From Bacteroidaceae bacterium (GTDB lineage Bacteria > Bacteroidota > Bacteroidia > Bacteroidales > Bacteroidaceae), in the NCBI GenBank assembly GCA_017646665.1, contig JAGCMB010000036.1:26963-90962 (forward strand): a stretch of DNA of 64,000 nt, read 5' to 3'. The notes beneath the pieces are model-generated. The model worked only from the letters and a program-made list of their open reading frames with translations, was not told the origin of the DNA and made no database searches. Position 1 is the first letter of the stretch; the number at the start of each line of letters is the position of its first letter. Below are positions 5,839 to 52,083 of this stretch, piece after piece. Both the position numbers and the translations under genes were made by a program.

Positions 5839-6036
5839 ATGTTGTATTTGGCTCGCAGATTGTACTTGCCAACAGGTGAAGTGTTGGAGAGATATGTGGT
5901 CAAATCGGGTGGTGATTGCCAGCTCGAATGGTTCCCGTTTGAGAAAGAGAGTCATTCGATGATTCTTGTCAATGAATTGTATATTCAAAAAAGTAGTGAC
6001 GGCGTGTTGACGATAGGTGAGATAGCATCCATTTAA
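5839..6036 (+). CDS. Small hypothetical protein (65 aa), doubtful
   Basis: Open frame only. It overlaps the trmH-like stop by 4 nt in convergent orientation. I recognise no motif. Confidence 0.25.
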   Translation: MLYLARRLYLPTGEVLERYVVKSGGDCQLEWFPFEKESHSMILVNELYIQKSSDGVLTIGEIASI

Positions 6037-6788
6037 CCCCTGCGGCGGAATTCGCTGCATATAATGGCTGTCGCAACCGAAACATTGAGCGATTCCGATG
6101 TTTCACGCCCCGATGGGTAATTGGGGATGAAAAGTCTTTCGGTGATATTCCTGCTGCACTCTTTGCTGATTCCGTTACCTTCGTTTCCCATTATTATCAG
6201 GCCATTGCCTTTAAGTTCTTTGTTGTAGATGTTCTCGCCGTCAAGGAATGTGCCGTATAACGGAGCTTTTTCTTTTATCGACTCAAGGAATTCCGGCAGG
6301 TTGACATAATGTACCTTTATGCGGCCTATGGCGCCCATTGTCGCTTGTATGGTTTTAGGGTTGTAGATGTCGGCTGTTCCCACTGAACAGAAAATATTTT
6401 CTATGCCGAACCAGTCGGCAATTCGTACTATCGTACCCAGATTGCCGGGGTCTTGCACGTTGTCGAGTGCAAGGCATAACTCACGCTCCGGGGTGGTGTA
6501 GTCGGCTTCGTACTGTGGTTGGTGGAAAATTCCCATCACTCCTTGGGGTGCCTGTTGAAAACTGATGCGTCGCATCTCTTCATTGCTTACTTCAATAACT
6601 TCTGTTTCGGGGTCAAGACGGTGCTCTTTTAGCCATTCTGTGGTGGCTATTAGCTTGTCAAGCGCTATCCCTGCTGCCATAAGGTCGAGGACTGTTTTTC
6701 CACCTTCGGCAACAAAAAGACCGCTTTCCTTTCTCTGTTTTTTGTTATCGAGTGCCAATATGCGTTTCTGAAGTGCTTTGCTCAACAT
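6033..6788 (-). CDS. TrmH/SpoU-family RNA 2'-O-methyltransferase
   Basis: 251 aa with SpoU motifs LDNVQDPGNLGTIVR, LIIMGNEGNGIS and SLNVSVATAI. Confidence 0.88.
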   Translation of the reverse strand: MLSKALQKRILALDNKKQRKESGLFVAEGGKTVLDLMAAGIALDKLIATTEWLKEHRLDPETEVIEVSNEEMRRISFQQAPQGVMGIFHQPQYEADYTTPERELCLALDNVQDPGNLGTIVRIADWFGIENIFCSVGTADIYNPKTIQATMGAIGRIKVHYVNLPEFLESIKEKAPLYGTFLDGENIYNKELKGNGLIIMGNEGNGISKECSRNITERLFIPNYPSGRETSESLNVSVATAIICSEFRRRG

Positions 6789-6850
6789 CTTTTTTGCTTT
6801 TTGCGTGATTAAAGTGGTGCAAATCTACCTTAAATCTTTCAAGTTTTTCG

Positions 6851-6858
6851 TATATTTG
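6851..6858 (+). promoter_or_regulatory. -7 promoter box TATATTTG upstream of the BamA/TamA-family gene
   Basis: Perfect TAnnTTTG, about 70 nt upstream of the ATG at 6930. Confidence 0.4.
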
Positions 6859-6929
6859 TAAATTATTTTTAGTATAATCCCGTTATTAGGGGGATTTTTA
6901 GGTTTTGTAATCTATTATTTGAGTTTTTA

Positions 6930-9236
6930 ATGACGTCGTTGAGGAAAATAGTATTTGCGCTCTTGAGCGTGCTTTTGCTGTTCTCGTGCTCGGTGAAGAA
7001 ATTCATTCCCGAGGGCGAGTATCTGCTCAACGATGTCGATATTGTTTCTAATACAAACGCCGCCAATGCGTCAAAGGCCGAAAAATACATTCTACAAAAA
7101 CCTAATGCAAAATGGTTCAGCCTTGTAAAGGTGCCTATGTACACATACGCCCTTTCGGGACGTGATTCTACAAATTGGGGAAACCGTGTATTGCGTCGTC
7201 TTGGTGAAAAACCTGTTGTCTTCAGCAAAAGACTTGCCGAGGCTACAAGATTGAACATTCAACAGATGCTCCTCAATGATGGTTATCTGCACGCGCGTGT
7301 CGACCTCGAAACACTTGTCAACGAAAAGAAACGTCGTGCAAAGGTCATCTACTATCTTCACGAGAAAGAGAGATACTATATATCGGATTTCAAGATGGTG
7401 AGTGAGGATACCGCTCTTGCCAAGATTATATTGGCCGACTCTGCCTCTTCAATGATTAAGGTCGGTATGCCGTTCAATGTCGATGGTATGGAAATGGAGC
7501 GTCGCCGAGTAACCAATCTGCTCAAGAATAATGGATACTATCGTTTCCAGAAAGAGCATATCACCTACACTGCCGATACTGCACATCACTCAAACAAGGT
7601 GAGGCTGACAATGAATATTGCCGGTTTTATCCCATCTGCCAATGCTGAACCGGTTGACCATAAGGTCTATCGTATTGGTAAAATCTACTATGTCGCAAAT
7701 GCGGGTCTTCATCTTGATGATGCTCTTTTGGAACAGTGTGACACCATAGTGCACGATAATTTCACTCTCCTGTACAAGGAGTCTCCGGTGGTCCGTACAA
7801 AGAAATTGCTTGAGAATACCTACATCACTCCGGGCGAGCTGTTCTCGCAGGATAATGTGGACAAGACATATAGCTCTTTCTCACAGCTTTCGGCATTGAA
7901 ATATACAACCGTAAGAATGCAGGAACGCCCCGATACGGCATTGCTCGACTGCTATATTATGTACGAAAAGAGCAAGCGATGCACGGTCGGTTTTGACCTT
8001 GACGGAACCAATACTGCCGGAAATTTCGGTGCATTGGCATCGGTGACAATATCCGATAAGAACCTTTTCAAAGGCTCTGAGCAACTTGCTTTGAGGTTGT
8101 TCTGCGCTTATGAGGCTGTTTCCAACCTCAGGGGATACAATGGTAATAAGTTCTTTGAGTATGGTGCAGAATTGAGTCTGCGCTTTCAGGGTGGTCTTAT
8201 ATCTTCGTTGGTTCCGGCCGGTCAAAGAAAACTTGTGTCATCATCACTGTTCTCGCTCAAGTTTAATTCGCAGGATCGTCCGGAGTTCAACCGTAAGCTC
8301 ATTTCCGGTACCTGGAGTTATATGTGGAGCCGTAAAAAAGAGACACAGCACAAACTCGATGTCATTGACTTGAACTACATCTATGTACCTTGGATTGCCG
8401 AAACATTCAAGAAGGAGTACCTCGACAGTATTTCAAACCGCAACTCGATATTGAAATATAATTACGAGAACCTTTTGATTACAAAATTGGGCTATACATA
8501 CTCCTACAACTCGTCGTTGAACGAAGCGAACCGTTATAAACGATTTGTTTACTCTTTGAGAACAAATGTGGAGTGTTCCGGTAATGTGCTGTATGGAATT
8601 AATTCTCTGTTCAACAGTGCCAAAAACGCCGATGGACAATATACGTTTATGAACATCGCCTATGCCCAATATGTTAAAGGAGATTTGGACTTCACCACAC
8701 GTGTAAGGATTGATGACAGAAATCAGGTGGTTATGCATTTGGGATTTGGTATTGCATACCCCTATGGAAATTCGCGCATCCTTCCTTTTGAGAAACGTTA
8801 TTTCGCCGGTGGTGCAAATGGCCTGCGCGGATGGACTGTGCGCACGCTTGGCCCGGGAAGTTACAAGAATAGCAATAAGAATATTGATTTCATCAACCAG
8901 TCGGGTGATATAAAGCTCGATATGAGTGTTGAGTTCCGTTCACACCTCTTTATGATGGTGCACTCGGCTGTGTTTATTGATGCCGGTAACATCTGGACAA
9001 TTCGTAATTACGAAGAGCAACCAGGCGGACAGTTCAATATTACAACCTTTTATAAAGACATTGCCGTTTCTTATGGTCTTGGATTGAGATTGGAACTTGA
9101 TATGTTCGTGTTCCGTCTTGATGCGGCTATGAAGGCTATAAATCCGGCATATAGCGGCAAGGAGAAATTCCCGATAATAACACCGAATTTCAACCGCGAC
9201 TTTGCCTTGCATTTTGCAATTGGCTACCCCTTCTGA
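6930..9236 (+). CDS. BamA/TamA-family outer-membrane protein (surface antigen D15)
   Basis: 768 aa with a signal peptide and lipobox-like LLFSC. It has a POTRA-like N-terminal half and a C-terminal beta-barrel with RYFAGGANGLRGW and a terminal ...GYPF. Confidence 0.85.
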   Translation: MTSLRKIVFALLSVLLLFSCSVKKFIPEGEYLLNDVDIVSNTNAANASKAEKYILQKPNAKWFSLVKVPMYTYALSGRDSTNWGNRVLRRLGEKPVVFSKRLAEATRLNIQQMLLNDGYLHARVDLETLVNEKKRRAKVIYYLHEKERYYISDFKMVSEDTALAKIILADSASSMIKVGMPFNVDGMEMERRRVTNLLKNNGYYRFQKEHITYTADTAHHSNKVRLTMNIAGFIPSANAEPVDHKVYRIGKIYYVANAGLHLDDALLEQCDTIVHDNFTLLYKESPVVRTKKLLENTYITPGELFSQDNVDKTYSSFSQLSALKYTTVRMQERPDTALLDCYIMYEKSKRCTVGFDLDGTNTAGNFGALASVTISDKNLFKGSEQLALRLFCAYEAVSNLRGYNGNKFFEYGAELSLRFQGGLISSLVPAGQRKLVSSSLFSLKFNSQDRPEFNRKLISGTWSYMWSRKKETQHKLDVIDLNYIYVPWIAETFKKEYLDSISNRNSILKYNYENLLITKLGYTYSYNSSLNEANRYKRFVYSLRTNVECSGNVLYGINSLFNSAKNADGQYTFMNIAYAQYVKGDLDFTTRVRIDDRNQVVMHLGFGIAYPYGNSRILPFEKRYFAGGANGLRGWTVRTLGPGSYKNSNKNIDFINQSGDIKLDMSVEFRSHLFMMVHSAVFIDAGNIWTIRNYEEQPGGQFNITTFYKDIAVSYGLGLRLELDMFVFRLDAAMKAINPAYSGKEKFPIITPNFNRDFALHFAIGYPF

Positions 9237-22449: not shown

Positions 22450-23217
22450 TTATTTTCCAATTATACCTCTTTCCGACTTATTCTCCACAAAATCAACAAT
22501 TTGCTGTACTTCGGGAGTCATTGTCATTGTTTCCTTAATCTTTGCGATACCCGTTGTCACCTTTCCTTCGTAGAGTAGACGGTATGCGTTGTGAATGTTC
22601 TTGATGGCATCGTTTGAGAAGCCGCGACGGCGTAATCCAACGATGTTCTCACCACAATAGTGCAATGGGTCGCGCGCAGCAATGACGTAAGGTGGAATAT
22701 CCATACTTACCTTGCTGCCGCCCTGTACCATAATGTGACCACCCAAATGGCAGAACTGGTGTACAAGAACACAGGCACTGAGAATGGCAAAATCATCGAT
22801 ATTCACCTCGCCGGCAATCTTTGTTGAATTGCCGATGATGCAGTTGCTGCCAACTACGCTGTCGTGTCCAATGTGGCAGTTCTCCATAAAAAGGTTGTTG
22901 TTGCCGATTACAGTCTTGCCTTTTGATGCAGTACCGCGATTAAGAGTAACATTTTCGCGTATTGTATTGTTGTCACCAATTTCAAGTGTGGTGTCTTCGC
23001 CAACAAACTTCAGGTCCTGTGGAATACCTCCAACAACAGCACCGTGGAAAACACGGTTGTTGTTGCCCATTCGTGTACCGCTCAAAATGGATGCGTGTGC
23101 CATAATGTGGCAGTTGTCGCCAATGACAACATTGTCGTCAATGTATACAAATGGTTCAATGGTGCAGTTCGCTCCTATTTTTGCACCCGGATGTATGTAT
23201 GATAGTGGATTGCTCAT
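22450..23217 (-). CDS. lpxA: Acyl-ACP--UDP-N-acetylglucosamine O-acyltransferase
   Basis: 255 aa with left-handed beta-helix hexapeptide repeats plus an LpxA C-terminal helical domain, in lpx cluster context. Confidence 0.93.
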   Translation of the reverse strand: MSNPLSYIHPGAKIGANCTIEPFVYIDDNVVIGDNCHIMAHASILSGTRMGNNNRVFHGAVVGGIPQDLKFVGEDTTLEIGDNNTIRENVTLNRGTASKGKTVIGNNNLFMENCHIGHDSVVGSNCIIGNSTKIAGEVNIDDFAILSACVLVHQFCHLGGHIMVQGGSKVSMDIPPYVIAARDPLHYCGENIVGLRRRGFSNDAIKNIHNAYRLLYEGKVTTGIAKIKETMTMTPEVQQIVDFVENKSERGIIGK

Positions 23218-47233: not shown

Positions 47234-47947
47234 CTATCTTTCCCAACCTTCGACACGATAGACCTTTTCCATCAGTTTTTGCTCTTTGCCCGTATTGGCG
47301 TTCTTGTACCACACCTCTATGCGTGCAGCGTAGTAATCGCCCCAATCGCCGGGATAGATTTTGAAGCACTGTTTTTCAACAACCTTTGAAAACGATGTGG
47401 TAGAGGGTGTTGCTACCATGCTTGCGGCCGAAATTCGCTCGGGCGAGAGCGGTATGTTTTCAGTTGCCTCGTAACAACGCAGGTATATCCATCCTTCTTC
47501 AAGTGCAGGGTGGTGGAAATCGTATGTATACATTCCGCCCTGTATATCATTCCAAATCTGCAGCCAGGTGTTGGTTGCTGTGCTGTCGATGGGGTGTGGC
47601 AGTTTTTCGCCCTCTAAAAGCGGAAGGTTATAATCCAGTTGGGCCGGAATGGGATGCTCTTTGCCGAAATTGTCGGGGCCGGGGTTGAAAGCCTGTTCAA
47701 TGGCTGTCATCAGTAAATAGACGAAATAGGTTACTGTAAGTGCTCCCAATATGAACGAAAACAGAAATCTCCACCACTTTTTGAATATGAGCAGAATAAT
47801 CCATGACGTTATCATTGCCACGAAGGTCAAGGGTACTGAAATTACAAAAAATATCGGCCACATTGAATCGAAGTATGCCGAAATCAATAATGATGCAATG
47901 AATGCCAGTGGGAACAGCCACCAGAATCTGTTGATGAAGTTTTTCAT
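47234..47947 (-). CDS. Hypothetical membrane protein (3-4 N-terminal TM helices plus a soluble C-terminal domain)
   Basis: MKNFINRFWWLFPLAFIASLL... No family is recognised. The ORF extends to 47980. Confidence 0.6.
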   Translation of the reverse strand: MKNFINRFWWLFPLAFIASLLISAYFDSMWPIFFVISVPLTFVAMITSWIILLIFKKWWRFLFSFILGALTVTYFVYLLMTAIEQAFNPGPDNFGKEHPIPAQLDYNLPLLEGEKLPHPIDSTATNTWLQIWNDIQGGMYTYDFHHPALEEGWIYLRCYEATENIPLSPERISAASMVATPSTTSFSKVVEKQCFKIYPGDWGDYYAARIEVWYKNANTGKEQKLMEKVYRVEGWER

Positions 47948-48089
47948 TTTTGTTTTGTTTTTTTTGAAAAACGCGCCCATTGTGAGTTTATTGCCATAAA
48001 GGAAGTTAAAGAATATTAATGCGGACGTAAAATATTTAAGTGGTCAAAAGTTTTTTTAAGCTATGCCATTATTTGGCGTAGGTTTGCTG

Positions 48090-48141: not shown

Positions 48142-49080
48142 ATGAACAACGACAAAGGGCAAGGTTTGATGAACAAATATGTGTGGGTAATAGAAACCAT
48201 ACATAGACACAAGAAACTTACGTTCAGGGAACTGAATGGACTGTGGCTCAATGATGATATAAGCATGGGGGTAGAACTTCCTAAACGCACATTCGATAAC
48301 TGGAGATATGCCATCTGGGATATCTTTGGACTTGATATTGTAAACGAGCAAAGGGGAAAGTACCGATATTACATAGAGAACGAAGAGGATATTACCGGTA
48401 ATGGTCTTTCATCGTGGCTTTACAGCACGCTAAGCGTTGCGAATACACTTTCCGGCAGCCAAAGTATAAAAGAACGTATTTTGCTTGAAAATATACCATC
48501 GGGGCAGGAGTATCTGCAACCGATTATCGATGCAATGAAAGCAAACCTACAGCTGAATATCACTTATAGGAGTTATTGGAGTGACGGAGAGTGCTGTTTT
48601 GATGTAAAACCTTATTGCGTAAAGCTCTTCAAACAGCGCTGGTACATGGTTGCACAAAGTACGCATCATTATTATGATAACAAGCCACCGATGATCTACT
48701 CGCTTGACAGGATATTGCAGCTAGCGGTTAAGAAGGATACTTTTGAGATGCCGGCTGATTGGGAACCTCAGGATTTTTTCAATGGTTGTTTTGGCGTTTG
48801 CCGCAGTATCGATATTGAGATTGTAAAATTAAAGCTCTCTGCTTCTCAGGCGAATTACATACGTGACTTGAAGTTGCATGACTCGCAGGAAGAGGTTGAA
48901 CACAACGATAAATATAGCATATTCACATACCGCTTACGCCCGGAATTTGACTTCCAGCAGGAACTGCTGCGTCATGGCGAGGACGTTGAAGTGCTTGAAC
49001 CGCAATGGCTGCGCGAAGAGATAGCCGGGAAAATTGAAAGGATGAGGGATAAGTATGAATGTTTAAATAATGGTAATTGA
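48142..49080 (+). CDS. WYL-domain transcriptional regulator (wHTH-WYL-C-terminal extension, YafY-like)
   Basis: 312 aa with an N-terminal wHTH (KYVWVIETIHRHKKLTFRELN), a WYL core (FDVKPYCVKLFKQRWYMVAQS) and a C-terminal ...GEDVEVLEPQWLREEI tail. Confidence 0.8.
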   Translation: MNNDKGQGLMNKYVWVIETIHRHKKLTFRELNGLWLNDDISMGVELPKRTFDNWRYAIWDIFGLDIVNEQRGKYRYYIENEEDITGNGLSSWLYSTLSVANTLSGSQSIKERILLENIPSGQEYLQPIIDAMKANLQLNITYRSYWSDGECCFDVKPYCVKLFKQRWYMVAQSTHHYYDNKPPMIYSLDRILQLAVKKDTFEMPADWEPQDFFNGCFGVCRSIDIEIVKLKLSASQANYIRDLKLHDSQEEVEHNDKYSIFTYRLRPEFDFQQELLRHGEDVEVLEPQWLREEIAGKIERMRDKYECLNNGN

Positions 49081-49092
49081 AATCTATTGTCT

Positions 49093-50412
49093 ATGAATGA
49101 AGAAATAAAGGAAATATTCTCTTTGTTGGATGATTATGTTTCTTATAAAAGAGAAGTACGGAACAAGTATCCGTATCATGTAAATCCAATAGAGGAGATC
49201 CGAGCTAATGAAAATGCAAACAGCCGCATACTCGGCACTTTGCTCCGTTATGAGCATAATGGAGAATATAAGATTTTGAAGAGTTTTTTGGAAAGAATGC
49301 TGCCGGAATTCAGGATTGAAAAACTCTCTAAACCTGTTATAGAATCAGAGCAATATCGTATAGATTTGTCTGTTCGCGAAGCCGGCAAGTATGCTATTAT
49401 TTTTGAAAATAAGATTCACAATGCTGTACTACAAAAAAATCAATTGGCAAGGTATATTGAAAAACTGCATGATGAAGAACATTTTAGTTATAATCAGATT
49501 TATGTGATTTTTATGCCACCAACAGTTGGATATGAATCAAATGATTGCTGTTGGCATAAATTTGTGGATGGAATATGTGGAAAATGCGATAATGGAGAAT
49601 GCAAACTAAATTATTCCCCTGAATTGCGTAAGATGTTTAAGAATGAAAACCGTTACAAAAAAATCACATTTAGAGACGATTTGTTAAACTGGTTGAAAGA
49701 AGATGTTTTGCCAAACTTAACAGAGAAAGAGGAACTGTTGAAGTCTTCTGTGATTTTGTATATAGACTATTTGGAAGGATTGTTTCAATTAAGAATGAAT
49801 GAAAAAAATATTTATATGGAACTTAGAGATTTTATTGTTAAGAAACTAAAACTTGATGACAAAGTATTGGAGGGTAAAATAGATGTTTTGCAACAAGAAA
49901 AAGAAAAGATAGATTCTTTATGCAAAGAGCTTGAAAATATGAGACTTTTCTATATGTGGGAGCTAATAGAAGAAAAAATGAAACCTATAGTTGAAAATAT
50001 TGCAAAATCCTATGAATTGGAGTGTGATCTAAGGGTTTATAATGATGGAAATCGTACGTTTTCTCTAGGTTTCAAAAGAAAAGATTGGGATTTGAATATA
50101 ATCTTTGCATGTTTTGTAAATTGTGGAATGGATTTATACATAGGTAAGCACAATGCGGAACCTATTAGTGGATATTCAACTTATAAGTGCATAAATGGAT
50201 GGAATGGCGATAGCAGTGATAGAGAAAAATTTCCTCACGGATGTGTGTGGTTGAAAAAATACGAAAATAAAATATTAGATTTGCTCCGTGATGTAACAGT
50301 AGATGATGGTGCTGAATTTAAAAGATTTTTAGAAGACAAATTGTATCATACTCTTAAAGAGATAGAAGGGCATCCTAATGAAATAACTATGAAAATCTCT
50401 AGTTCTCAATAA
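49093..50412 (+). CDS. PD-(D/E)XK-family nuclease (PDDEXK_4-like) with a Cys-cluster insert, a coiled coil and an unknown C-terminal domain
   Basis: EIRANENANSRILGTLL..., YRIDLSVRE...YAIIFENKIHNAVLQKNQLARY (D...E-x-K plus QLxRY), CCWHKFVDGICGKCDNGEC, and coiled coil LEGKIDVLQQEKEKIDSLCKELENM. The first ATG is at 49093 and the ORF opens with TTG at 49087. Confidence 0.65.
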   Translation: MNEEIKEIFSLLDDYVSYKREVRNKYPYHVNPIEEIRANENANSRILGTLLRYEHNGEYKILKSFLERMLPEFRIEKLSKPVIESEQYRIDLSVREAGKYAIIFENKIHNAVLQKNQLARYIEKLHDEEHFSYNQIYVIFMPPTVGYESNDCCWHKFVDGICGKCDNGECKLNYSPELRKMFKNENRYKKITFRDDLLNWLKEDVLPNLTEKEELLKSSVILYIDYLEGLFQLRMNEKNIYMELRDFIVKKLKLDDKVLEGKIDVLQQEKEKIDSLCKELENMRLFYMWELIEEKMKPIVENIAKSYELECDLRVYNDGNRTFSLGFKRKDWDLNIIFACFVNCGMDLYIGKHNAEPISGYSTYKCINGWNGDSSDREKFPHGCVWLKKYENKILDLLRDVTVDDGAEFKRFLEDKLYHTLKEIEGHPNEITMKISSSQ

Positions 50413-50440: not shown

Positions 50441-50476
50441 GACCTCTGCCACTAATTGGCAGAGGTCTGTTTTTTC
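50441..50476 (+). terminator. Rho-independent-type hairpin between the nuclease gene and the FtsZ-like gene
   Basis: GACCTCTGCC-ACTAATT-GGCAGAGGTC perfect 10-bp stem followed by TGTTTTTTC. Confidence 0.7.
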
Positions 50477-50497: not shown

Positions 50498-51445
50498 ATG
50501 CACATAAAAATTATGAAAATTGATTCTGCTTTTCCGGATGTACTGATTATTGGTGTTGGTGGTGGCGGTTGTAATATCGTTGGAAACAACAGTGTTATAT
50601 TTGGTGTTAATTCTGTTGAGATTGACAATGTAGAACAACCCGATATTGATACATTATTAAACGAGGAAATACGAACAGTATTTATTGTGACTTGTCTTGG
50701 TGGTGAATACGGCTCAGCCGTTGCACCACAGATTGCTGCTGAATGCAGGAAAAGAAAACTAAGGACTATCGGTGTTGCTACATTACCGTTTGAGTTTGAG
50801 GGTGCAGTAAAGACACAACGTGCAAATGCTACAGCAAATGAACTTGCAAAGAATTGTGATTCCCTTAACCTTGTACATAATGAAATAATGTTGAAGGGTA
50901 ACCAGACAATTGCTGTAAATGAGGCATTTAAGGATGTCAATATGCGCATTTGGGAGATAATCACCAAAGAAATATACTCAACCCCTGTCTGGTTTTACGA
51001 TAAGAGTGAATATGTCATCAAGAATAGGTTTAAGAAAAGGTTCGGGTGGTTGCATAAGAATGAAGGGGCTTTGGTTTGTAAATCTTTCATAGATAATGAT
51101 TATAAGATAACCAGGCTATGCATTGACATTGTGGAACGGAAAGCAAAAAGGGTTATGGGAAAAAGGTGGTTCAATAATCTTAGTGAAGACATAAAATTCA
51201 AAGCATTGTTGTATGCTCTTGTTTGTGAATTATGGGATGACGGTGGTCAATACCTGATTTCCTGGGATATTGTGTATGATGTACTGACCATCAGCAGAAA
51301 ATGGCAGATTCAAGGTTGGTTGCTGTCTTATGAAGCAGTAGATTGTCTTGAAGAATGCAAACTTGCAAATAAGCGCAAGGCCAGTGTGGAAATATATAAA
51401 AGACGAAAAGAATTGCTTTCCTCGTTGAACAATGCTACCGAGTAA
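50498..51445 (+). CDS. Truncated, degenerate FtsZ/tubulin-like GTPase-domain protein fused to an uncharacterised C-terminal domain of about 155 aa
   Basis: [13 protein letters not shown] (T1 loop). [42 protein letters not shown] aligns to FtsZ [52 protein letters not shown] aligns to DSLITIPND. The T2/T3 loop region and the whole FtsZ C-terminal (T7) domain are absent. Confidence 0.6.
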   Translation: [315 protein letters not shown]

Positions 51446-51462
51446 CAGAAATTATAAAATAT

Positions 51463-52083
51463 ATGGAAGAACAAACAACAGTCAGGTTTTATGCTTTTAT
51501 ATGCTGCTATTTCAAGGATACGAAATGGGGCAAACACTTGCGACGCAATCTTGAAGGCTATAAAGTTCCTACCACCTTGTACAAGCGGAACGGGTGGAAA
51601 CGTAAGCCAATAAATTCGATATTTCTTTTTTCTATTGAAGAACGCGGTATTGGTGGGTTTCACGGTGGACTGAAGGGGTATCTTGAGAATTCTCGCCACT
51701 TTATTGTCGTGTGTTCGCCACATTCAGCCAAGTCAAGAGTTATGGCTGAAGCAATATCCTATTTCCACAGCATCGGGCGTAGTAAGGATATTCATTTCTT
51801 TATTGTTGATGGAATTCCTGATAGTAGCGACAGAGAAACTGAGTGCTTCAATCCCGTGGTAAAGAAACTCGGCATTACTGTAACATCATGTGTAAACATA
51901 AATGAAAAAAAATATCGTTGGTCTTGGCTCAATAGGCAACGTGCTTACGTGCAACTCATTGCGGCTCTGTTGGGAGTGGAAGCAGACTTGATATTACAAC
52001 ACCATAAAAGACGTGCTATACAAAAGTTTGTAATTGTGCTTGTGGCGTTTATCGCTGTGCTTGTGGCGCTGTTTGCTGTTTGA
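51463..52083 (+). CDS. TIR-domain protein with a C-terminal transmembrane anchor
   Basis: FYAFICCYFKDTKWGKHLRRNLEGYKVP..., SRHFIVVCSPHSAKSRVMAEAISYF and IHFFIVDGIP match the bacterial TIR pattern (FISY..D..W...L...LE.YrVP / lIViCSP.sa.SrWV.eEI..F / lIVDGeP). These are followed by YVQLIAALLGVEADLILQHHKRR and the TM helix FVIVLVAFIAVLVALFAV. Confidence 0.6.
   Translation: MEEQTTVRFYAFICCYFKDTKWGKHLRRNLEGYKVPTTLYKRNGWKRKPINSIFLFSIEERGIGGFHGGLKGYLENSRHFIVVCSPHSAKSRVMAEAISYFHSIGRSKDIHFFIVDGIPDSSDRETECFNPVVKKLGITVTSCVNINEKKYRWSWLNRQRAYVQLIAALLGVEADLILQHHKRRAIQKFVIVLVAFIAVLVALFAV

Follow-up and report, generated by a model that had tools for sequence, protein, structure and literature searches.

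An FtsZ-derived protein with an accessory TIR gene in a WYL-framed defence hotspot of Bacteroidaceae

This study concerns a 64,000-nucleotide stretch of a Bacteroidaceae genome (assembly GCA_017646665.1, contig JAGCMB010000036.1, positions 26,963 to 90,962), called here the window, and within it four consecutive plus-strand genes between 48142 and 52083: a WYL-WCX transcription regulator, a PDDEXK_4 protein, an FtsZ-like protein and a protein that joins a TIR domain to a transmembrane (TM) helix, TIR-TM. The last two are the open reading frames (ORFs) under study. The FtsZ-like ORF (50498-51445, plus strand) encodes 315 amino acids (aa), and the TIR-TM ORF (51463-52083, plus strand, 206 aa) follows it after 17 nt. 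Across 49-52 kb the GC content is 0.32-0.39, down from about 0.45, and the block stands among core genes, with MatE, enolase and a 248-aa membrane protein upstream and ABC-F, aminotransferase, GH20 and LepA genes downstream. We found that 48.06-52.08 kb is a low-GC defence hotspot lying between the side of the 248-aa protein and enolase and the ABC-F side. Its frame consists of the WYL-WCX gene in the proximal position and an FtsZ-derived, N-domain-only protein in the distal one, with a slot of swappable cargo between them that is closed by a hairpin. A defence setting had been proposed in a first-pass annotation made from the letters alone, and it is borne out by the low GC, the WYL regulator and a match to the PADLOC candidate PDC-S26 in the window, together with AbiEii, UzuA, PDC-S23 and PDC-S48 in syntenic relatives.

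The likely start codon of the FtsZ-like gene is at 50513 (MKIDS...), in agreement with the NCBI protein P0001, a "hypothetical protein" of a Bacteroidaceae metagenome-assembled genome (MAG) that is 100% identical to the FtsZ-like product. The same annotation had read this product by eye as an FtsZ N-terminal domain, and profile and fold comparisons uphold that assignment. The Pfam profile Tubulin (PF00091) scores 46.6 bits, over a gathering cut-off of 33, with the match limited to profile positions 110-187. A profile built from family members alone finds FtsZ in the PDB at 2.8e-29, aligning its positions 16-164 with FtsZ 9-195 across a 38-residue internal gap, and the AlphaFold2 (AF2) model (predicted local distance difference test, pLDDT, 75-88 in the N-domain) gives Foldseek matches among which the top 50 in the PDB are all FtsZ. 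By score and by fold the protein belongs to the tubulin/FtsZ superfamily. The N-terminal domain (50498..50980, plus strand; about residues 1-161) carries the T1 loop GVGGGGCN, the T4 motif GGEYGS, the T5 region PFEFEG and helix H7, and is without T2/T3. Alignments show that T1, PFEFEG and H7 are retained, that the S2-H2-T2-S3-T3 segment is absent (about 38-45 residues), and that the T4 signature GGGTGTG has become GGEYG[ST], whose conservation in the family marks it as a fixed feature and not as decay.

The remainder of the gene (50981..51445, plus strand; about residues 162-315) encodes a Trp-rich helical region specific to this family. AF2 models it as helical with low pLDDT; searches of Pfam, the PDB and PHROGs gave no match for it, and an exhaustive profile search of 1.84 billion representatives returned fragments of the same family only. 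Pfam also found no PF12327, T7 loop or FtsZ C-terminal domain in the protein, so that the losses listed at first reading (T2/T3, the canonical T4, T7 with the C-terminal domain, and a tail of about 155 aa in their place) all stood up to alignment. TIGR00065, the ftsZ equivalog profile, scores 59.7 bits against a cut-off of 295.2, and over residues 56-153 only. The N-domain is about 35% identical to Bacteroidota FtsZ, and FtsZ of other phyla is equally close, which indicates an old diverged branch and not a recent copy; for the same reason the idea of a mimic derived from the host FtsZ was rejected. No genuine ftsZ lies within the window. Two further leads were set aside: among the relatives of the N-domain, long apparent "fusions" (P0209, P0215 and others) proved to consist of FtsZ copies in tandem and gave no information, and hydrophobic-moment scans gave no support to the invariant "GWL" segment as a membrane-targeting amphipathic helix.

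The FtsZ-like ORFs are intact and of constant length in about 80 clusters, and 23 columns of the family alignment are invariant, the altered T4 motif among them. In a scan of the genome collection, the full-length family turned up in no more than six species, all of them Bacteroidaceae MAGs; searches of phages, plasmids and viral contigs gave ordinary ftsZ or nothing, and no member of this family. Synonymous divergence (dS) was about 0.5-1.0 and similar for all genes of the locus. The ratio of nonsynonymous to synonymous divergence (dN/dS) was 0.01-0.02 for ABC-F, 0.07-0.14 for WYL, 0.07-0.26 for a small ORF with an HExxH motif found in many relatives, 0.21-0.46 for the FtsZ-like gene in both of its halves, and 0.42-0.61 for TIR. 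Measured by dN/dS, the pace of the FtsZ-like gene is about 20-40 times that of the core gene beside it. The FtsZ-like and TIR genes are fast-evolving like conflict genes, are still under purifying selection and are not pseudogenes. In this sense, the FtsZ-like gene is a real, selected gene and not a decaying ftsZ, with the core of the nucleotide-binding domain kept through helix H7. With no T2/T3 loops to sense the gamma-phosphate, no canonical T4 and nothing of the T7/C-terminal half, it presumably cannot act as a polymerising, GTP-hydrolysing FtsZ subunit; the motif losses argue against canonical GTP binding or hydrolysis and against polymerisation.

A separate 222-aa protein consisting of an FtsZ N-domain only (P0085; L009-L011) has the canonical GGGTGTG and no WYL gene nearby; with resolvase, sortase and DUF3846 genes around it, the setting looks like a mobile element of Firmicutes. 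This case makes more than one origin of N-only FtsZ proteins probable.

The proximal frame gene (48142..49080, plus strand) encodes a regulator with both WYL (Pfam 9e-10; PADLOC WYL 1.2e-29) and WCX (2.7e-15) domains and a putative N-terminal winged helix-turn-helix. It stands at the edge of the defence genes, as in WYL-regulated islands of the BrxR type. Next to it, in the variable slot, lies the PD-(D/E)XK nuclease-family gene (49087..50412, plus strand), assigned by Pfam (PDDEXK_4, 2.4e-14) and PADLOC (PDC-S26, 1.3e-11). Comparison with relatives shows which of these positions are fixed. In all full loci a WYL gene lies upstream. The order in Bacteroidaceae (15 loci) is WYL-WCX, variable slot, hairpin, in most cases the HExxH ORF, the FtsZ-like gene, an optional extra gene and ABC-F. 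The slot holds PDDEXK_4 types 31-78% identical to that of the window, a 226-aa protein resembling uracil-DNA glycosylase (UDG), or about 6 kb with an insertion sequence (IS); the extra position holds nothing, TIR-TM, or DUF6922 plus AbiEii, the AbiEii gene adjoining the FtsZ-like unit in L003. The HExxH ORF (133-136 aa; IHEYAHH...SHGYRFW; L003:7585-7989, L052:3741-4142) runs about 10 nt past the FtsZ-like start codon in most loci. It is absent from the window and from L001/L002, and it also precedes a 204-aa FtsZ-like form without the tail in L036. It is a lineage-restricted orphan of six clusters, all at least 83% identical; by eye it resembles SprT/DUF45, and it has no match in Pfam, the PDB or PHROGs.

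Six Prevotella loci (L027:8090-10417, L037, L038, L041-L043) show a comparable frame of WYL, cargo, an unannotated protein of about 264 aa, a PP2C phosphatase and an FtsZ N-domain-only protein of 229-254 aa, the 264-aa protein and PP2C always preceding the latter. The Prevotella WYL protein is 53% identical to that of the window, and the FtsZ N-domain there keeps canonical T2/T3/T4 loops. The cargo includes UzuA (1.9e-78), PDC-S23 RhuM-Fic (2e-137), a DEDDh exonuclease matching PDC-S48 and a UDG-like protein. In an unrelated genome (GCA_054001795.1, L012:4761-8561) a WYL-WCX gene, followed on its strand by DUF2779, adjoins a 186-aa FtsZ-N-only gene that is transcribed divergently from it, at the edge of a neighbourhood of conflict type: nSTAND/AAA, Metallophos, UDG-like, cREC_REC and ParD. 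Genes for FtsZ N-domain-only proteins are framed by WYL regulators in three lineages, an unexpected pattern, and the WYL-WCX regulator is a more robust partner of the FtsZ-like gene than is TIR.

Some details of these neighbourhoods deserve mention in their own right. Weak members of the UDG superfamily, below the Pfam threshold and without a PADLOC assignment, recur in the slot, in Bacteroidaceae (L001:7189-7869) and in Prevotella (L027:7062-7841). PHROGs gave no match for the FtsZ-like, TIR and HExxH proteins or for the unannotated 226-aa and 264-aa proteins. The 248-aa membrane protein is encoded upstream of WYL in the window (47234-47980, minus strand) and downstream of the TIR gene in L014 (1701-2414), a difference in position that points to local rearrangement around the island.

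Two palindromic elements accompany the frame. The first, CTATGCCA-TTATT-TGGCGTAG (48061..48081, plus strand), is a candidate WYL operator in the divergent promoter region, directly upstream of the Bacteroides-type -7 box (TATATTTG) of the WYL gene, at a place where no gene ends. Every Bacteroidaceae locus has a related element, AAACCTCTGC(C/T)A-N5-TGGCG..., before the WYL -7 box, and the copy in L020 is a perfect 13-bp palindrome. The second, at the boundary of the slot and the FtsZ-like unit (50441..50467, plus strand), is an inverted repeat with perfectly matching 11-bp arms, GACCTCTGCCA-ctaat-TGGCAGAGGTC, and a T-run behind it. This hairpin (folding free energy -22 kcal/mol, z-score -6.2) resembles an intrinsic terminator and might also act as an operator. 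It is unique in the window and is found in every Bacteroidaceae locus whatever the upstream gene, with varying loops and one compensatory stem change. Both elements have the same left arm and core. Within the 64 kb that core, TGCCA-N5-TGGC[AG], has three sites, of which two belong to this island; the third, at 23098, lies inside an ORF and is probably there by chance. In Prevotella a different shared half-site, GGCACACC, stands at a similar distance to the -7 box before both WYL and the gene of the 264-aa protein, and in L012 two CGACA-N5-TGTC(G/A) palindromes lie in the 154-nt divergent intergenic region.

The hairpin at 50441-50467 may be understood otherwise. The FtsZ-like unit would then be independent of WYL, the hairpin a plain terminator, and the FtsZ-like gene, with the HExxH ORF where present and with or without TIR, an abortive-infection or toxin-like module of its own, with its own promoter, in a shared hotspot. 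The strong terminator between the slot gene and the unit fits such an arrangement, as does the HExxH ORF, 84-93% conserved and overlapping the FtsZ-like start; moreover, hotspots often stack unrelated systems, and AbiEii adjoins the unit in L003. We nevertheless regard this explanation as unlikely: WYL adjacency appears again in a third, unrelated lineage, where regulator and presumed target are transcribed divergently, palindrome cores are shared before both genes in two genera although the motifs differ, and the HExxH ORF is dispensable, being missing from the window and L001/L002.

The second focal protein had been taken at first reading for a TIR protein with a C-terminal TM helix, and the AF2 model (pLDDT 89) confirms the TIR fold. 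Foldseek matches to the model are mostly TIR domains of RUN1, RPS4, TLR, MyD88 and SPARTA (E 1e-4 to 1e-3; TM-score up to 0.7 on the target). Sequence profiles were less telling: Pfam TIR_2 scores 18.3 bits, under the gathering threshold of 28, and the TIR family profile found no match among PDB sequences, so that fold comparison alone succeeded. About 150 clusters homologous to the protein, homologues at about 50% identity included, carry PF13676 and PF08937. The cytoplasmic TIR domain (51463..52026, plus strand) contains Glu97 (..SRVMAEAI..) and a conserved juxtamembrane linker, LIAALLGVEADLILQHHKRR. Glu97 occupies the catalytic position of the S-x-W-x-x-x-E motif and is at least 90% conserved in the family; the Trp of the consensus SEW motif is Val in the window protein. 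Both the TIR fold and a glutamate at the catalytic position are present. The last 18 residues, directly after HHKRR, are strongly hydrophobic and form the putative C-terminal tail anchor FVIVLVAFIAVLVALFAV, which together with the stop codon occupies 52027..52083 (plus strand).

The usual member of this TIR family has about 345 aa and runs from the TIR domain through the conserved linker and a TM helix into a beta-rich domain of about 140 aa outside the cytoplasm. The window protein, like a few of its relatives, ends right after the TM helix and lacks that last domain. The one full-length relative whose context was examined (P0135; L015-L018, around 6001-7086) has a receptor-like topology, its TIR domain cytoplasmic and its beta-rich domain extracytoplasmic, on either side of one TM helix. 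In its four loci it is surrounded by TPR and other TIR genes (including TIR-RHS), with no tubulin-like gene nearby. In other relatives of the island, further TIR proteins, among them a TIR-WD40 and a 993-aa TIR protein, are encoded a few kb upstream of WYL (L003:1356-2645, L004:309-1724, L023:4245-7226), which indicates that this neighbourhood repeatedly accumulates TIR genes.

How firmly FtsZ-like and TIR-TM belong together was judged from a tally of 15 distinct FtsZ-like loci. A TIR gene is present in 6/6 FtsZ-like alleles ending in NNATE (one of them IS-disrupted) and in 0/9 alleles ending in DCSHK/DCSRK or GMSSFA. Wherever a short TIR-TM allele could be placed (identity to the window allele 99, 78-80 and 54-55%), it lies exactly 17 nt after an NNATE-ending FtsZ-like gene; a variant tail, ...LLSTLNNATE, also occurs among the TIR-linked products, and P0018 has the same NNATE tail followed by a 206-aa TIR gene, as the tail rule predicted. 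Eight of the neighbourhoods compared had no TIR; the placing of short TIR alleles elsewhere showed that the pairing is not unique to the window. The 17-nt spacing and the lack of a terminator between the two genes imply co-transcription, which we presume.

The cassette has a history of its own. When the window is compared with L052, the TIR gene and the last ~50-150 nt of the FtsZ-like gene are 99-100% identical, the rest of the FtsZ-like gene is 60-80% identical, and the flanking ABC-F gene, at 86-98%, is below the TIR cassette. The last ~15-50 codons of the FtsZ-like gene are part of a TIR-linked recombination block, and a cassette 99-100% identical between genomes whose FtsZ-like genes share only 67-82% identity implies recombinational exchange independent of the FtsZ-like gene body. 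DCSHK tails are the same as NNATE tails up to ...ELLSSL, so the correlation of tail and TIR reflects an indel breakpoint at the gene end. In one lineage a mobile element with inverted terminal repeats (GG..TGGACAAAAAGTAGGAT) has broken the TIR gene near codon 20, at the equivalent of ~51520 of the window, and the FtsZ-like gene is intact. L019:10961-11175 shows one junction of the insertion and L049:1-140 the other, with an apparent 8-bp target duplication CAAGGATA. In Prevotella and L012 the recurrent neighbour of the FtsZ-N-only genes is WYL, not TIR. All TIR-bearing cases occupy one orthologous site in one Bacteroidaceae lineage, and co-occurrence is therefore inseparable from common descent.

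A two-gene module, as proposed by the first-pass annotation, thus holds only in part: the adjacency recurs in six NNATE alleles at 17 nt, and it is not obligate, with 9/15 loci lacking TIR and a cassette that recombines. Co-occurrence across homologues and lineages, which a conserved two-gene system should display, was not found (6/15 loci). The pairing exists, then, as an accessory arrangement that arose once and is limited to a single orthologous site of a single lineage. In its strongest form the idea was a dedicated defence system, in which a crippled mimic of FtsZ would serve as sensor or decoy, for instance towards FtsZ inhibitors made by phages, or as a scaffold that licenses or assembles a membrane TIR NADase, perhaps by its C-terminal tail. 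Its attraction lies in the constant spacing on the same strand without a terminator in six sequence-distinct alleles (TIR 54-99% identical), in a short TIR-TM form known at this position only, in a tail that tracks TIR perfectly, in the conflict-gene-like dN/dS of both genes and in the defence-island setting. We consider it decidedly unlikely all the same, given the nine loci where the FtsZ-like gene is intact and conserved without TIR, a cassette that moves between divergent backgrounds (99% vs 67% identity), the breakpoint explanation of the tails, the IS in TIR beside an intact FtsZ-like gene, the lack of a TIR association in Prevotella or L012, and the single lineage and site. The guard or decoy function in particular gained nothing from the sequence, as an N-domain no closer to Bacteroidota FtsZ than to that of other phyla is a poor mimic of host FtsZ.

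A different possibility is that FtsZ is no longer involved, and that the reduced Rossmann-like core has become a module for binding a nucleotide or second messenger, for example in a Thoeris-like reception, whose output would come from the helical domain newly joined to it. What is kept includes T1 and PFEFEG, a ribose/phosphate-contact region, and what is lost is specific to polymerisation, a family-specific C-terminal domain has been gained, and the TIR relatives match ThsB_TIR (PF08937). Against this, the phosphate-binding T4 has turned into GGEYGS and T2/T3 are deleted, a signal-producing TIR is absent from most loci, there is neither a ThsA-like or other known effector domain nor a PADLOC match, and short forms (186-229 aa) exist without any output domain, all of which makes the proposal very unlikely. 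That the locus is a hitch-hiking relic, a degenerating and functionless ftsZ fragment beside an unrelated degenerating TIR fragment, is hardly credible: canonical motifs and half of the protein are lost, TIR lacks the extracytoplasmic domain of its family, has Val for the SEW Trp and is IS-disrupted in one lineage, but the ORFs are intact and of constant length in ~80 clusters, dN/dS is well under 1, the 23 invariant columns include the altered T4, and gene order and spacing are conserved.

The best model overall, to which we give somewhat less than an even chance, is a WYL-framed defence hotspot in which the product of the conserved distal gene, derived from FtsZ, possibly caps FtsZ at the plus end or brakes division, and in which TIR-TM is an accessory effector. 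In this model, the WYL regulator would control itself and the FtsZ-like unit through the related TGCCA-N5-TGGC palindromes before both, and induction might follow the signals that WYL factors sense elsewhere, namely single-stranded DNA (ssDNA), damage or infection. WYL regulators sensing ssDNA are known to switch on division inhibitors, as DriD does for DidA (PMC10853764, PMC9186387) and DdaA for AciT (PMC13010146), and regulators of the BrxR type stand at the head of defence islands (PMC9122601). The nearest solved relative of the window WYL protein is DriD (8TP8/7TZV), with a weak E of ~5e-5. The FtsZ-like protein could then dock like a subunit on the bottom, plus-end face of host FtsZ and, having no bottom face of its own, cap or sequester FtsZ so that division pauses; these are the least certain steps. 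SulA, MciZ and MinC all target that face, where capping is highly effective (PMC11938149). Where present, TIR-TM may be a tail-anchored, NAD+-consuming effector, the abortive-infection arm of the same induced unit. The Prevotella form with its intact loops would be the best candidate cap, and the family of the window may bind differently or act otherwise through its private C-terminal domain.

Several points weigh against this model. All Bacteroidaceae and Prevotella loci are syntenic, so the linkage to WYL is partly inherited, and L012 alone is clearly independent. The reading of the palindromes as candidate WYL operators at both promoters stands at about even odds, because the 50441-50467 repeat is by itself fully adequate as an intrinsic terminator and the WYL-side element follows the MatE stop codon in some loci; their similarity may come from a duplicated terminator, in which case the operator reading would be wrong. 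T2/T3, part of the top interface, are lost in the window family, normal GTP binding is improbable, and docking like a subunit is uncertain on these grounds; an intact top face is kept in the Prevotella form only. At about 35% identity to Bacteroidota FtsZ the N-domain is not a close mimic, and its action on FtsZ is a proposal. It is not obvious how a division brake would protect from phage, and the capper model does not account for the conserved 155-aa tail. A wider generalisation seems unlikely at present: that FtsZ N-domain-only proteins form a new class of WYL-controlled, FtsZ-derived effectors in defence-hotspot frames of Bacteroidales and at least one other lineage, capping FtsZ as an immune or damage checkpoint or serving as decoys, and that one sub-clade took on a tail-anchored TIR NADase, transcribed together with the module, as its means of killing.

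To our knowledge, this would be the first bacterium to have made half of a division protein of its own serve among the accessory genes of an immune island, and we know of no SulA-like division checkpoint described in Bacteroidales. The FtsZ-like protein is a concrete candidate for such a checkpoint. It also offers a testable link between WYL sensors, which govern division inhibitors in DNA damage and head defence islands, and division control. Three forms, one in Prevotella whose loops are intact, one of 204 aa that lacks T2/T3, and one of 315 aa with an added tail, with or without TIR, make up a natural series for studying the function of FtsZ interfaces. There is also a caution for the discovery of defence systems, as a striking, tightly spaced pair can be a lineage-specific cassette insertion, and the conserved partner, here the WYL regulator, became visible only on comparing many loci.

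FtsZ itself (PF00091 + PF12327, TIGR00065), the only strong fold and profile match of the FtsZ-like protein, is homologous to it over the N-terminal nucleotide-binding domain, T1 loop through helix H7. The FtsZ-like protein differs in the absence of T2/T3, T7, the C-terminal domain and the C-terminal FtsA/ZipA-binding peptide, in a T4 that reads GGEYGS, and in the place of its gene, in a defence island and not in the dcw cluster. Three defining features of FtsZ were tested for and none was found; the protein is not an FtsZ. A lead is the FtsZl-1 family of Makarova and Koonin (2010), which reportedly has an FtsZ-related GTPase domain without the canonical FtsZ C-terminal domain and lies in conserved non-division operons. 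These operons are reported to be linked to membrane-remodelling genes and are not known to be linked to WYL or defence cargo.

With SulA, MciZ and MinC-N (PMC11938149) the FtsZ-like protein would share the proposed action, a block of the bottom or plus face of FtsZ, and with SulA also its proposed induction by a damage-sensing regulator; there is no relation in sequence or fold, and the putative inhibitor here would be derived from FtsZ itself. The DriD-DidA pair of Caulobacter and the DdaA-AciT pair of Acinetobacter likewise link a WYL-WCX regulator to a small gene plausibly aimed at division, and the candidate operators are palindromic; however, DidA and AciT are unrelated to FtsZ, the target of DidA is FtsN, and the regulator here heads a defence-type island (PMC9186387, PMC10853764, PMC13010146). 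As with WYL regulators of the BrxR/CapW type, the regulator lies at the upstream edge of variable defence genes; BrxR binds inverted repeats near its own promoter, and here a palindrome near the WYL promoter is the candidate operator (PMC9122601). In contrast, no bacteriophage exclusion (BREX) or cyclic-oligonucleotide-based anti-phage signalling (CBASS) system is present here, and an FtsZ-like distal frame gene is not described for BrxR islands in PMC9122601.

The TIR-TM protein has the TIR fold and a Glu at the catalytic position in common with Thoeris ThsB, SPARTA TIR-APAZ and TIR NADases, and its relatives match ThsB_TIR and TIR_2. It differs from bacterial TIR effectors in being tail-anchored by a single C-terminal TM helix and in having no ThsA, Argonaute, SAVED or STING partner. 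Thoeris joins a ThsB TIR to ThsA; here the neighbours are WYL, PDDEXK_4 and ABC-F, and neither Pfam nor PADLOC gave a ThsA-like match. The second protein is a TIR fold outside any named TIR system. The first-pass annotation knew of no described system with these two domains, and our searches agree, as no PADLOC model matches the FtsZ-like or the TIR protein and the literature on FtsZ-like proteins with WYL, defence islands or TIR/anti-phage functions yielded nothing relevant. Set among these systems, the FtsZ-like gene represents an undescribed branch of the FtsZ superfamily inside a WYL-framed defence hotspot.

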